DNA of 64,000 nucleotides from a virus: positions 32,001 to 96,000 of IMG/VR virus record IMGVR_UViG_3300043411_001639; one strand, written 5' to 3'. Made by a program: the position numbers and the translations under genes. This document shows, one piece after another, positions 11,270-23,966 of the stretch. The notes under the pieces are model-generated. The model ran no database searches. It saw only the letters and a list, made by a program, of their open reading frames with translations, and was not told where the DNA came from. How positions within the stretch are numbered: position 1 is the first letter of the stretch; each line of letters begins with the position of its first letter.

Positions 11270-11383
11270 TCAACTTTGTTTCAGACAACCCAACGATTAG
11301 CTGAACTAATCTCGTTGCAACCCTCTGTGAGTCGTGGTAGTGTCAGGTTGTCAGTCGGGCAGAGCAACAGAGGAACTAATTCA

Positions 11384-14908: not shown

Positions 14909-14974
14909 CAAACCTGTTGCAACCTACTCCGCAACCTGTTAGTGTCGGGTTGTCAGTCAACCAGGAGTTATTCA

Positions 14975-19755: not shown

Positions 19756-19929
19756 AAAGTCATGCCAAATCTACTATAGACTAGGGAGGGTTAAAGTCAT
19801 GCCAAACTACCCATATCCCCTACCCAAAAGTCATGCCAAACCAGAGTTGTTAGAAACCACCAGAAGTCATACCACGCACACCCGCACGAGACACAACAAC
19901 TGTTTTAGATAAACTCATGACATGCCAAA
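19756..19929 (+). repeat. iteron-like direct repeats AAAGTCATGCCAAA
   Basis: exact copies at 19756, 19793, 19827; degenerate at 19863 and 19919; period 34-37 bp. Confidence 0.85.
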
Positions 19930-20358: not shown

Positions 20359-20550
20359 ATGCATAACAAACTTGACCCCCGTGATCCCCGTTTCATTGAG
20401 TTTTACCTTTCTGGAGGAGATGTTCCGAAAGAGGTAAACGACAAAAACCCCAGTACTTCTCTTAGTTCAGAGGAGTCTGAGGTGCTTCTTAACCAGGGTT
20501 TCTATAAGCCTGTTGCTACAAAAGAAGGCGTTGGATTCAAGAACAACTGA
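20359..20550 (+). CDS. hypothetical protein
   Basis: ORF track. Confidence 0.6.
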   Translation: MHNKLDPRDPRFIEFYLSGGDVPKEVNDKNPSTSLSSEESEVLLNQGFYKPVATKEGVGFKNN

Positions 20551-20564
20551 TTGACACTCATAGT

Positions 20565-20677
20565 CTGAACAGTTAGGTGAACCCTTCAACAACCCAACGG
20601 AGCGTTTTCCTAACTGTTCAGGCAATGAACTACTGTCCGCGCTTCATTCATAGAGCGCCCGTCGTTGATTGCCTGAA
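20565..20677. other. overlapping, partly exclusive inverted repeats in a non-coding gap
   Basis: CTGAACAGTTAGG (20565)/CCTAACTGTTCAG (20609); TTCAGGCAAT (20617)/ATTGCCTGAA (20668). Confidence 0.75.
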
Positions 20678-20906
20678 ACCCTCTCAAACCGGAATAACCT
20701 GGAATCTTTGGAAAACCCTAGAGGCAAAACAGTTGACACTAGCAGCTCTCACAGAGGGTTGCAACAGAGAAGTTTCATCTAGCAACCTCCGTGCCAAAAC
20801 TGAGATTAGCTGAACTAATCTAGCTGTTGCAACCTCTCTTGGAACCTGCTAGTGTCGGGTTGTCAGGTGAGGGATAGCAGGGCAGAACGAACGAAGGAAA
20901 AAAACC

Positions 20907-21050
20907 ATGATGGAACTCTCGCTCAACTTCTCCGTTTCTCTGGAAACCATCACGGGCTTCACGCCGGTTTTCGTGAGCATCATGGCCGCGTGTTTCGTCA
21001 TGGGAGCGTCTCTCCGGTTCCTGGTGTGCAAGGTCCGCGCCAACTTCTAG
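20907..21050 (+). CDS. small membrane protein (47 aa)
   Basis: promoter 20827, GAAGGA RBS, GC-rich third codon positions, one hydrophobic helix; translated by hand. Confidence 0.7.
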   Translation: MMELSLNFSVSLETITGFTPVFVSIMAACFVMGASLRFLVCKVRANF

Positions 21051-21110
21051 AAGTTAGCTGAACTAACTTCGGGTGTTGCAACCTCTGAGAGAACCTGCTA
21101 GGGTAAGAGC

Positions 21111-21221
21111 ATGAAAAAGGCGAACAAGGGCAAGCGGTGGAACAAGCGGGAAAAACGCCGCAACGAATCGCTGGACGGTCGCAAGCAACGGCGCAAGTTT
21201 CTCGCGAGTCTCACTGACTGA
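21111..21221 (+). CDS. 36-aa highly basic leaderless peptide (MKKANKGKRWNKREKRR..)
   Basis: ATG 6 nt after -10 box 21099-21104; translated by hand. Confidence 0.65.
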   Translation: MKKANKGKRWNKREKRRNESLDGRKQRRKFLASLTD

Positions 21222-21309
21222 CTGGCATAGAGGTTGCAACGGAAAACCAACTGTTGCAACCTCCCCGAAAGGGTGCTAAGGTAGAAGAGTAGGTAACAGA
21301 AGGAAGAAA

Positions 21310-21392
21310 GCTCTAGTGGCGGAATGGTAGACGCGGGGGTTTCAAAAACCTCTTCCCGCAAGGGAGTGAGAGTTCAAGTCTCTCTTGGAGCA
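21310..21392 (+). tRNA. tRNA-Leu(CAA)
   Basis: GCTCTAG/TTGGAGC acceptor; GGGGT-TTCAAAA-ACCTC anticodon arm; long variable arm. Confidence 0.92.
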
Positions 21393-21435
21393 CAAAAGCC
21401 ACAAACGGCGCGGCAGTGTCGTTGGCTTGTCTCTT

Positions 21436-21508
21436 GCAACGGTAGCTCAACTGGCAGAGCATTCGGCTTTTAACCGAAGGGTTGAGGGTTCAAGTCCCTC
21501 CCGTCGCA
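21436..21508 (+). tRNA. tRNA-Lys(TTT)
   Basis: GCAACGG/CCGTCGC acceptor (one mismatch); TTCGG-CTTTTAA-CCGAA anticodon arm. Confidence 0.92.
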
Positions 21509-21610
21509 CCGTGGTCGGCACCAGTCTTGCAAACAAAAAAAGGCTGTTGCAACCAACCCCGCAACCTGCTAGTCTAAGAATGTAGCAGGAAACAACCAAC
21601 GGAGTCAAGA

Positions 21611-22003
21611 ATGGCAAAGCGCACGACGGAAGAAACCATCGCTCACACCGTCAAGGTCAAGGGTATCGTCGCCGACCGCTCCGGCATCAACAACACGCGT
21701 GGCGCGCGTGCGATCATCGCGTCGGAAGTCTTCGGCGTCTCGCAGACACTCCGCAACCACGGCGCCGCCGCCGTCTTCGCGCTCCGCAACGGGGATAACG
21801 TCGTGGTGCTGTCCCGCGTCGCCCGCAAGGGCCGCCCGCGCTGGAGGCAAGTCGGGCACGGATCTTCCACGGTCATCACGTTCGCCCGCGTGCTCTCCGG
21901 TGGCAAGGTTTCCAAGGTCGTCAAGGCGTCCACGCTTGCGGAGCTCTGCAACAAGGGTGCCCGCTACATCGGGACGCGCGCCAACCTCTACGGCAACGGC
22001 TAG
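21611..22003 (+). CDS. basic hypothetical protein with high-GC codon usage
   Basis: promoter 21547, GGAG RBS, strong G/C bias at third positions in this frame. Confidence 0.85.
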   Translation: MAKRTTEETIAHTVKVKGIVADRSGINNTRGARAIIASEVFGVSQTLRNHGAAAVFALRNGDNVVVLSRVARKGRPRWRQVGHGSSTVITFARVLSGGKVSKVVKASTLAELCNKGARYIGTRANLYGNG

Positions 22004-22314
22004 AACCCGCTGGCACGAAGGTTGCAAGGGCAAGGCAAAGAAAACCCGCTGTTGCAACCTGTTTCGGAACCTGCTAGAGTCTGAATGTAAGGTGAGAGGT
22101 AGGGAAGACAGAGAACCGGAAGGAAAAAGAATCCGGTTGCAACCCTCCCCGAAACCTGCTAGAGTCAGAGAGTGAGAAAAGGAACGGGGCCAGAAACTAG
22201 ACGAAACAATCTGGTTGCAACCCTCCGAAGAGTCTGGTAAGGTAAGAGTCAGAAAGGGAGTCAGGGTGGCAATGTCGCCTAGCCCACTCCCAAACCAGGA
22301 AAGAAAAAAGAATA

Positions 22315-23034
22315 ATGAACTCCATCAACGCCACCTCGCCCGTCGTTTCCTCGGATTCCATCGTCGCCGACCCCAACGCCTCGCAGGAGAACACCATGCA
22401 CACCCCCGACAACTCCGCCGACGCTTCGCCCCTGTCCATGCGCCCCGCGGATCGCGCCGCCCGCGGCGAGTCCCTCACGCCCGACGAGGAGGGCGCGCTC
22501 GCGGCCAGCGACGCGGCGGAGTTCCTCGCCTACCTCCGCGCACAGCGCGCGTACCTCGCCTCCGCGCTCGCGGCGGCGAAGGCCCCCAAGGTTCCGGGGA
22601 AGCGCGGGCCGCAGGGTCCCCAGCGCGGGAAGGTGGTCACGCTGGCCGACGGCCGGATGATGATCGTCGGCGCGGGTCTCGGCAAGCGGGCCGCGTTCAA
22701 TTCCGCGAAGGGTGCGCTCGGGGCGCGCGCGGAGCTCCTCCCCGGCGACGCGCTGAACATCGCCCTCGTGACGTTCGGGGCGGACGGGAGCGGCGTCCTC
22801 TACACCGTCAACGGTGTCGCGGGCGAGACGCCCCGCGGGAAGGGTTCGCCCGGTGTGTCGCTCTCTTGCACGCGGGCGGACAACGGCGAAGAGGTCGTGT
22901 TGTTTCCGACGATGGATTCCATCGTGGACGCGGTGTGCATCACGGGTTCCGCGGCGCTCCTCGCGGTGCTTCCGGTGCTTCAAGCGCAGAAGGTGCGCGC
23001 CGCGCGCGCAGCGAAGACGCCCGCCACGGTCTGA
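22315..23034 (+). CDS. Ala/Gly-rich hypothetical protein with high-GC codon usage, under three tandem promoters
   Basis: promoters 22052, 22137, 22215; AGGA upstream; third-position G/C bias picks this frame. Confidence 0.85.
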   Translation: MNSINATSPVVSSDSIVADPNASQENTMHTPDNSADASPLSMRPADRAARGESLTPDEEGALAASDAAEFLAYLRAQRAYLASALAAAKAPKVPGKRGPQGPQRGKVVTLADGRMMIVGAGLGKRAAFNSAKGALGARAELLPGDALNIALVTFGADGSGVLYTVNGVAGETPRGKGSPGVSLSCTRADNGEEVVLFPTMDSIVDAVCITGSAALLAVLPVLQAQKVRAARAAKTPATV

Positions 23035-23062
23035 CGCCTCACCCGCCAGAATCCCACCTAAA

Positions 23063-23111
23063 GAAACCCCCCGCGACGACCCTAGAGAATAGGGAACCGT
23101 CCGGGGGTTTC
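23063..23111 (+). terminator. GC-rich stem-loop after the last early gene
   Basis: GAAACCCCC..CCCTA-GAGAA-TAGGG..GGGGGTTTC, followed by CCCGTTTT. Confidence 0.5.
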
Positions 23112-23225
23112 CCCGTTTTACAACTTTGACCCCCTCTAGCCCCTGTACCCCCCCACCTCTACCTACCCGGACCCAGGAGGTGGTTGGCATGGAGGGTGCA
23201 TGACCCACGAGATTCTAAACCAGAT

Positions 23226-23966
23226 AAAATTTTTCTGGGAATTTTTCTATTTATGGGGACCTTTATGTTATATTTTTCTAAATGGTTGTTTGAAAACGAC
23301 AATATAATTGATGATTTAAATACAGTGTTTTCAATTCAAGAAACTATAAAAACTGTTGAACAACATGGTTTAGAGCAGCTTGGTTTAGGAAACAACGAAG
23401 GAACAACAAGAATTGTTTTTAAACATCCAAATAACAAACAAGTGATTAAAATACCAAGACAAACAACATATCTCAAATATAATTTTAATGAGATTAAATC
23501 ATTTGCTTGTCTTGGAAAAGAATATGCTGCTGAGATAACAGAGTTTCATCCTAAAGGTTATTGGTTGATAATGGAACTTGTTAAACCATTTAAAGATCAT
23601 CAAGAGTTTAATCAGAAACTCCAACAAGTTTTAAACTTACCAGATACTATCAATGACGAACGTTTTTTATATAAAGCAGTGGTTCAGTTTAAAGAACAAG
23701 AAAGATTAAAACTTTCAACTAAACTATGTCATTCAAGTGAATGGTTTAGAAAACTTACAACCAAACTTTCCAGTTGTGAAGTAGGAGGACAAGATTTAAA
23801 CTGGTTTAACTTTGGATTAAGAGAATCAACAGGTGAATTGGTTATGTTAGACTATGCTGATTTATTAACAAATCCGGCTGTTCAACAACCTTGTTCCATT
23901 TAAAACTAAAAAAGGTTCATAAAATAGGGCGGGTAATGCCTCTGAAAATTTTTCTGGGAATTTTTC
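23226..23966 (+). repeat. 22-bp exact repeat AAAATTTTTCTGGGAATTTTTC (23226-23247, 23945-23966)
   Basis: identical copies, each immediately before a TATTTA late-promoter-like motif. Confidence 0.85.
23265..23903 (+). CDS. protein kinase-like protein 1 with capsid-targeting-like N-terminus
   Basis: EGTTRIVF, VIKIP, NxNE, LIMELV, DLNWFNFG, LDYA; start MLYFSKWLFE. Confidence 0.8.
   Translation: MLYFSKWLFENDNIIDDLNTVFSIQETIKTVEQHGLEQLGLGNNEGTTRIVFKHPNNKQVIKIPRQTTYLKYNFNEIKSFACLGKEYAAEITEFHPKGYWLIMELVKPFKDHQEFNQKLQQVLNLPDTINDERFLYKAVVQFKEQERLKLSTKLCHSSEWFRKLTTKLSSCEVGGQDLNWFNFGLRESTGELVMLDYADLLTNPAVQQPCSI

Follow-up and report, generated by a model that had tools for sequence, protein, structure and literature searches.

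A conserved two-part signal resembling the sigma-54 consensus in stem-loops before early promoters of a putative T4-like jumbo phage

Promoters of the sigma70 and sigma54 classes may stand in tandem, as with glnAp1 and glnAp2 in E. coli, and transcription from a sigma70 promoter can then be hampered by the sigma-54 holoenzyme nearby. Chromatin immunoprecipitation sequencing (ChIP-seq) of sigma-54 (RpoN) in the same organism recovers 17-mers, within which important and unimportant positions have been defined (Bonocora et al. 2015, PMC4591121). Among phages, the T4 type carries promoter-early stem-loop (PeSL) cassettes (Arbiol et al. 2010, PMC2839356; Comeau et al. 2014, PMC4122927), the abstract of the latter paper making no mention of a sigma-54-like signal, and Pseudomonas phage YuA is described as depending on both sigma70 and sigma54, its sigma54-like promoter having been found by promoter trap (Ceyssens et al. 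2008, as cited in Putzeys et al. 2024, PMC10914365) and again by cappable-seq (PMC10914365). Here we describe a group of sigma-54-like boxes in 64,000 nucleotides of viral DNA (the window, whose coordinates are used unless stated otherwise), i.e., bases 32001-96000 of the 156,732-bp IMG/VR virus record IMGVR_UViG_3300043411_001639 (CheckV completeness ~43%). These boxes represent one conserved two-part signal, GGCAY-N5-TTGCW, located in the upstream arm of PeSL-type stem-loops that head some of the early cassettes of this phage.

Occurrence and register of the boxes

The five sigma54-like sites quoted in a preliminary description of this DNA (S1 to S5) are real and lie at the positions given there; a weighted consensus scan added S6 and one doubtful site, S7.

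20781..20796, minus strand: box S1, TGGCACGGAGGTTGCT, with 16 nt between its end and the -35 of the single early promoter on this strand
21223..21238, plus strand: box S2, TGGCATAGAGGTTGCA, ending 15 nt before the tRNA-Leu promoter
21516..21531, plus strand: box S3, CGGCACCAGTCTTGCA, a weaker site whose end is 15 nt short of the 130-aa gene's promoter
22011..22026, plus strand: box S4, TGGCACGAAGGTTGCA, which begins 8 nt after the 130-aa gene stops, with 25 nt from its end to the first promoter of the 239-aa gene
23185..23200, plus strand: box S5, TGGCATGGAGGGTGCA; no sigma70-type promoter follows it, and the first AT-rich kinase-like gene begins (ATG at 23265) ~65 nt downstream
21947..21962, minus strand: site S6, GGGCACCCTTGTTGCA, within the 3' end of the 130-aa gene; TTGGCACCCTTGTTGCA in many relatives
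21027..21042, minus strand: doubtful site S7, TGGCGCGGACCTTGCA, in a 47-aa open reading frame (ORF), with GGCG instead of GGCA

The pattern TGGCAY-N5-KTGCW has four matches in the window, all within 20781-23200, as compared to 0.08 expected from shuffled sequences, and these four are the sole matches in the entire record. In 5000 dinucleotide-preserving shuffles of the GC-rich island alone (20500-23260; 59% GC), the mean number of matches was 0.007 for this pattern (4 observed) and 0.017 for GGCAY-N5-TTGCW (5 observed). All four TGGCAY in the island are followed by KTGCW exactly 5 nt on (0.03 such pairs expected), and when the two halves were searched across the record at spacings of 0 to 12 nt, three matches were found at N5 and 0-1 at each other spacing. 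Sites S1 to S6 all read GGCA-Y-N5-(T/G)TGC-W, with an RRAGG spacer in four of the six. Letters outside the searched motif also fit the E. coli sigma-54 17-mers (consensus from PMC4591121): Y precedes TGG in 4/5 of the quoted sites, TGGCACG occurs at S1 and S4, and W follows TTGC in all. S7 is probably not a functional site, since it takes the consensus form in only one relative (L011); S7 (window 21042) and a site at L011:5983 were judged to be chance matches or by-products of coding.

Four of the boxes stand in a fixed register with members of a family of strong sigma70-type promoters. A pattern search detected ~28 copies of GTTGCAAC(C)-N-TG(C/G)TAG(A/T)GT genome-wide, i.e., TTGCAA and TAGNGT set 17 nt apart, with the TG of an extended -10, the -35 core GTTGCAAC being a palindrome, and a repeat search found eight 45-nt copies of this promoter repeat in the island. 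These early promoters are nearly all on the plus strand, at record positions 7.4-54.2 kb, and precede small ORFs and tRNA genes. Only four of the ~28 are preceded by a box, which ends 15, 15, 25 and 16 nt before the -35; the first three values, for the plus-strand boxes, agree with those of the preliminary description. Among the window and its relatives the distance between box and promoter falls into two classes, 14-16 or 25-26 nt, and one face of the helix is therefore kept. The promoters and genes concerned are as follows.

20736..20764, minus strand: early promoter TTGCAA-N17-TAGTGT, the sole one on this strand, facing a conserved non-coding region and itself conserved in relatives
21254..21282, plus strand: early promoter (by the promoter pattern) of tRNA-Leu(CAA) and tRNA-Lys(UUU)
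21310-21393, plus strand: tRNA-Leu(CAA), downstream of early promoter 21254..21282
21436-21510, plus strand: tRNA-Lys(UUU), downstream of the same promoter
21547..21575, plus strand: early promoter (by the promoter pattern) of the 130-aa gene
21611-22003, plus strand: 130-aa gene, GC content at third codon positions (GC3) 0.87
22052..22243, plus strand: early promoters 22052, 22137 and 22215, in tandem upstream of the 239-aa gene
22315-23034, plus strand: 239-aa gene, GC3 0.90

All of these lie in a 2.7-kb island (window 20.5-23.2 kb) with 52-59% GC in a record with ~33% GC. The island forms the distal end of the early region; beyond 23.2 kb the promoters cease and GC3 drops from 0.83-0.90 to ~0.2. 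It had been called the GC-rich end, but it is located at 52.5-55.2 kb of the 156.7-kb contig, i.e., mid-contig. A small ORF starting from the ATG at 23200, behind the GGAGG of S5, was considered and rejected, as L011 has ATA there. The minus-strand promoter reads into ~190 nt (20545-20735, minus strand) that hold no credible ORF, are highly conserved in relatives and terminate in an invariant 13-bp hairpin (CCUGAACAGUUAGG...CCUAACUGUUCAG); Rfam gave no match for this region, which is likely a small RNA.

Conservation among relatives

Relatives were collected through homologues of two GC-rich island genes (74-96% protein identity) in a large protein collection and its contigs, plus one metagenome scan, which yielded ~25 metagenome contigs; orthologous regions were picked by flanking anchors and not by the motif. 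A cultured-phage collection contained no close DNA relatives and gave distant protein matches only, a scan of IMG/VR with the promoter pattern gave six single chance matches without similarity to the phage, and IMG/VR scans seeded with the two GC-rich proteins gave no match. Sixteen independent metagenome contigs (L030-L040) start within a few bases of one point, 137 nt before the 130-aa gene, which likely reflects assemblers breaking at the promoter repeat.

S1 is kept in 7/7 loci (including L011, L013 and L026-29), where the box varies only by C/T at position 6 and both flanks vary. S3 retains GGCAY-N5-TTGCAA in all 22 loci covering the region (9 haplotypes), even though its first base may be T, C or A, its spacer CAGTC, ACCAG, GCCAG or CAACC, and its upstream context one of three unrelated ones; a 10-bp indel downstream places it 15 or 25 nt from the -35 and leaves the N5 between the halves unchanged. 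S4 is kept as CTGGCACG[A/G]AGGTTGCAAG in 24/24 loci (8 haplotypes) with variable flanks. S5 is found, within a conserved block of ~70 nt, in every locus reaching the region (6 haplotypes) except L015, in which the entire downstream cassette is replaced. S6 is likewise kept in 24/24 loci; it lies within 5 successive codons that show no synonymous change in any of 9 haplotypes. Only one such run in the 130-aa gene is longer, and just 27% of the codons of this gene are invariant. S2 is identical in L025 and present as a variant, 14 nt before the -35, in L041; it tracks a cassette with a 36-aa ORF that only some relatives hold, and L011-13 are without the whole cassette.

Across orthologues, GGCA, TTGC and the N5 spacing are unchanged, as compared to varying spacers, flanks and promoter spacers. 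In a pooled test of substitutions, variable cells numbered 0/48 in GGCA+TTGC versus 15/54 elsewhere (P = 2.5e-5), and 0/30 at the positions that Bonocora et al. (PMC4591121) defined as important for sigma-54 versus 7/30 at those defined as unimportant (P = 0.005). Moreover, the halves never trade places: GGCA always comes first and TGC second, a pattern suggestive of two distinct reading modules.

If the boxes were functionless, they could derive from one chance sigma-54-like 16-mer that was copied along with its cassette, with kinship among close relatives giving the look of conservation. S2 and S4 with their flanks are indeed 76% alike over 29 nt, and the proteins of the island genes are 74-96% identical among relatives. 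Flanks, spacers and promoter spacers have nevertheless diverged while GGCA and TTGC never changed, the variants of S3 are too different to be recent copies, and the freeze of synonymous sites at S6 indicates constraint. We thus regard an origin by copying alone as very improbable.

The same comparison bears on a second alternative, in which the box delimits mobile promoter cassettes on their left side and serves as a target for recombination or homing, where phages would swap genes, and not as a transcription signal. Homology breaks at the box at S3 (with its three upstream contexts) and at S4, S2 is gained or lost with the 36-aa-ORF cassette, S5 is lost with the downstream cassette of L015, and PeSLs are described, in the abstract of Comeau et al. 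2014, as points of exchange between unrelated sequences (PMC4122927). On the other hand, exchange by short homology would preserve a continuous stretch and not two blocks around a free spacer, ~23 other cassettes of the genome shuffle without a box, S6 lies inside a gene, and no nuclease or recombinase is linked to the boxes. A border function therefore appears unlikely.

Hairpins, cassettes and iterons

The boxes form the upstream (5') arm of stem-loops. At S1, S2 and S4, the spacer together with TTGCA(A) pairs with the -35 GTTGCAAC and a CCTCC behind it.

around 20781..20796, minus strand: S1 hairpin with the -35 region, -22.2 kcal/mol, z-score -2.8
21230..21263, plus strand: S2 stem-loop of 13 bp, in which the spacer and the -12 half pair with the -35 palindrome and CCTC; -26 kcal/mol, z-score -4.6
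22016..22066, plus strand: S4 stem-loop, in which AGGTTGCAA pairs with the -35 of promoter 22052 (TTGCAACCT); -25.8 kcal/mol, z-score -1.85
23063..23118, plus strand: terminator-like hairpin with a T-run following the 239-aa gene, conserved, with paired changes in L011 (CCCCCG...CGGGGG vs CCCCTG...CAGGGG)

None of 200 shuffles folded as well as S2, and S4 in L041, where the box has GGAGG and the promoter CCTCC, reaches -32 kcal/mol (z-score -4.0). The hairpin at S3 differs in that the spacer pairs with bases just before the -35 and TTGCAA lies in the loop; its arms compensate in two lineages (CAGTCTT/AAGGCTG vs TACCAG/CUGGUG, the latter with one G-U pair). At the exact place of S2, L026-29 carry a different hairpin, which in L026 is an unrelated one, and other early cassettes have short hairpins just before the -35. 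S5 and S6 are boxes without a sigma70-type promoter or a pairing partner. Pairing thus covers the spacer at four sites, together with the -12 half at three of them and the -24 half at the fourth.

The cassettes themselves appear to be exchanged at the promoter units: the 36-aa-ORF cassette, tRNA-Lys, extra units in L026 and the replacement in L015 all begin or end there. Subsets of promoters share leaders (CAGGTTGTCAG...GGGCAGAG, or CTGAGTGTAGCAAGG; window 11344-11365, 14946-14960, 20856-20885 and others), and the cassettes therefore consist of promoter plus leader and not of the promoter alone. Short hairpins with a common loop, CTGAA (TTCAG on the other strand), stand before several promoters (20804-20822, 21052-21070, 11290-11310 and L012:1050-1070) and are inserted or missing among relatives. 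Between 23063 and 23183, past the terminator-like hairpin, a C-rich tract with CCCCCTGTA repeats is followed by a hairpin, CCACCTC...GAGGTGG, that abuts S5.

One half of the box also occurs by itself, in an array 0.8 kb upstream of the boxes that is unique in the record.

19756..19929, minus strand: iteron array with three exact TTTGGCATGACTTT copies plus degenerate ones, 14-nt unit AAAGTCATGCCAAA

The iterons (TTTGGCAYRACTTT, minus strand) match the -24 half of the box, with no -12 half next to it, and lie in the non-coding gap before promoter 20013. Four relatives (L011, L013, L026 and L027) keep 3-4 copies spaced 26-56 nt with small variations, and the Y/R variation falls at the same places as in the boxes. 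The array may be an origin or a regulator array.

Hairpins and iterons together make up the case for an explanation that does without sigma-54. Here the boxes would be the 5' arms of PeSL-type stem-loops, with TTGCA(A) as a second copy of the -35 GTTGCAAC, the purine spacer as the partner of CCTCC, and the TGGCAYR half as a site for a phage or host protein that also occupies the iterons; the protein would act as a class I-like regulator of a few early promoters, or it would single out hairpins, in RNA or DNA, that are to be processed or to terminate transcription. Consistent with this are the strong hairpins at S2, at S1 and at S4 in L041, the arms of S3 that differ by lineage and still pair, the different hairpin of L026 at the place of S2, the hairpins before the -35 in other cassettes, the conserved iterons with their -24 half, and the two distance classes, which keep one helical face as upstream activators do. 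Conversely, pairing covers different halves of the box at different sites, leaves the TTGCAA of S3 in the loop and explains nothing at S5 and S6, where the two-part N5 signal is kept all the same; a protein of identical subunits on a direct repeat would not keep the G and T halves apart without exception; and it would be a remarkable accident for an unrelated site to agree with sigma-54 at each informative position. Neither of the two island proteins showed a recognised DNA-binding fold, in structure models that are poor for both (pLDDT, i.e., predicted local distance difference test, 67 for the 130-aa and 54 for the 239-aa protein; a PDB fold search gave nothing below E 0.08). We consider this explanation only slightly less likely than reading by sigma-54.

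Candidate readers and comparison with described systems

We take the signal itself to be under selection and the hairpin to be a second, superimposed feature, because the two-part signal with its fixed spacing and never-swapped halves is the only property common to all sites. The most likely single reader is the host sigma-54 RNA polymerase holoenzyme, since the boxes are identical with the sigma-54 consensus TGGCAC-N5-TTGC at every informative position; we assign this reading a probability of about 0.4, a value held down by the question of the host, by a -35-like half that may come free, by the iterons and by the missing activator.

If sigma-54 holoenzyme reads the boxes, a silent closed complex would dock at about -51 to -66, or -61 to -76, from the adjacent sigma70-type start, on the same helix face as the sigma70-type promoter. 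Docking of this kind could provide a second, activator-gated promoter for the same genes, with predicted sigma-54 starts, expected ~12 nt past the GC, at ~20770 (minus strand), 21249, 21542, 22037 and 23210, or it could act as a clamp that insulates or occludes the strong neighbouring promoter. A more specific, and more tentative, proposal is that a T4-like jumbo phage recruits host sigma-54 to its hairpin-embedded sites, both those phased on the helix with selected early sigma70-type promoters downstream and the one ahead of the first gene that follows the early region, where the closed complex or a phage-made activator would gate, insulate or time the cassettes. The preliminary description had also considered clamps or decoys on the first-entering DNA. 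T4-type terminases package by headful, which gives no fixed first-entering end; with an island that lies inside the contig and a terminase of the T4 type, this idea is without support.

Several observations weigh against sigma-54 as the reader. The genes concerned already have very strong sigma70-type promoters, so that a sigma-54 promoter looks redundant. The RRAGG spacer and TTGCA at S1, S2 and S4 are explained by pairing with GTTGCAAC and CCTCC, and, TTGCA being the -35 core of the phage's own promoters, half of the resemblance may come free. S6 lies antisense within a coding region, and the lone -24 half in the iterons hints at a protein that reads TTGGCAYR by itself. The weighted consensus scan of 157 kb found no good site besides S1 to S6; for the same reason, we rejected the box as a general middle-promoter element. 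In these 157 kb (~43% of the genome by CheckV) there was no match to Sigma54_DBD and no enhancer-binding activator ATPase (PF00158), and no enhancer was identified. Finally, Cyanobacteria and Actinobacteria are among the possible hosts. To our knowledge, both of these lack sigma-54. Overall, of the sigma54 interpretation put forward earlier, the non-random occurrence, the match at informative positions, the fixed register and the conservation have stood, while the record encodes neither sigma-54 nor an activator and pairing within hairpins also accounts for the spacer and -12 half of three of the boxes.

We treat the phage as a distant T4-like myovirus of jumbo size because the record encodes a T4-type large terminase (with a T4-type N-domain and only ~30% identity to T4-like phages) and two sheath-like proteins; it also encodes a class I aminoacyl-tRNA synthetase. 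Searches of the record found no sigma70 region 2, no T7-type or multisubunit RNA polymerase and no psbA; MotA and AsiA were not found either, in searches whose control remained silent. For the phage IleRS, the bacterial relatives show ~40% identity and come from Binatia, Silvanigrellaceae, Patescibacteria and others, without a clear lineage. Four consecutive early ORFs in window 20907-23034 have GC3 values of 0.73-0.90 as compared to 0.18-0.26 in the genes that follow, relatives retain this contrast, and the phage tRNAs read AT-rich codons only (UUA, AUA, AGA, UUG, AAA); the tRNA set and the GC3 contrast suggest a GC-richer host. The island ORFs had no Pfam matches, Rfam over 19-24 kb returned tRNAs only, and a protein atlas search with the island proteins gave no match.

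If sigma-54 reads the boxes, T4-type phages would control their early genes by a further layer, enhancer-dependent or clamp-like, that has not been looked for so far. Together with YuA and an excess of sites in Desulfovibrio phage 7757, the boxes would then point to a phage use of sigma-54 that is more frequent than the literature suggests. If it does not, they still amount to a conserved signal, of protein or hairpin type, that sets apart a subset of the PeSL-type cassettes. This subset drives two tRNAs, a likely small RNA and the extremely GC-rich first genes, and the signal would offer a handle on the ordering of the earliest expression.

Among the terminase matches, the best E-value was that of Desulfovibrio phage 7757 (OR395405.1, flagged UNVERIFIED_ORG); the phage was rejected as a close relative, as only 9/155 ORFs match, at 23-34% identity. 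Its genome contains seven TGGCAY-N5-TTGCW sites as compared to 0.43 expected, with 0-1 at each other spacing from 0 to 12 nt; the sites (13836, 47553, 52858 on the minus strand, 53283, 57958, 109486 and 140165 on the minus strand) are mostly inside genes, the one at 109486 being in a gap ~115 nt before a gene. The host family of this phage uses sigma-54 heavily. In five other T4-like phages we found 0-1 sigma-54 consensus sites each.

As compared to the glnAp1/glnAp2 pair, the sigma-54-like element of the present phage is placed upstream of a sigma70-type promoter at a fixed 15 or 25 nt. Like the sigma-54 -24/-12 sites mapped by ChIP-seq in E. coli (PMC4591121), the boxes have GG and GC one helical turn apart, fit YTGGCAYR-N4-TTGCW with the same information profile of substitutions, and occur in both orientations and inside genes. 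They differ from the E. coli sites in lying within hairpins and in register on sigma70-type promoters, and in that neither activator nor enhancer was found in the record. Phage YuA resembles the present phage in combining host sigma70-type promoters with a sigma-54-like promoter, and the earlier statement that no lytic-phage system of this kind had been described was thus too strong; YuA, a siphovirus, is not related to the present phage, its host is known and bears sigma-54, and its promoter has experimental support; the account of its promoter in Putzeys et al. 2024 (PMC10914365) reports no tandem, phased or hairpin layout. So far as we have found, a use of sigma-54 docking such as that proposed here has not been described for T4-type phages. 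A further likeness is to the PeSL cassettes (PMC2839356, PMC4122927), in which a strong early promoter with an adjoining stem-loop is repeated between small variable genes and tRNAs, and genes are gained, lost or replaced among relatives at these units. The present phage is only distantly T4-like (terminase ~30% identity), and in four of its units the stem-loop overlaps the -35 and carries a sigma-54-consensus signal in its 5' arm.

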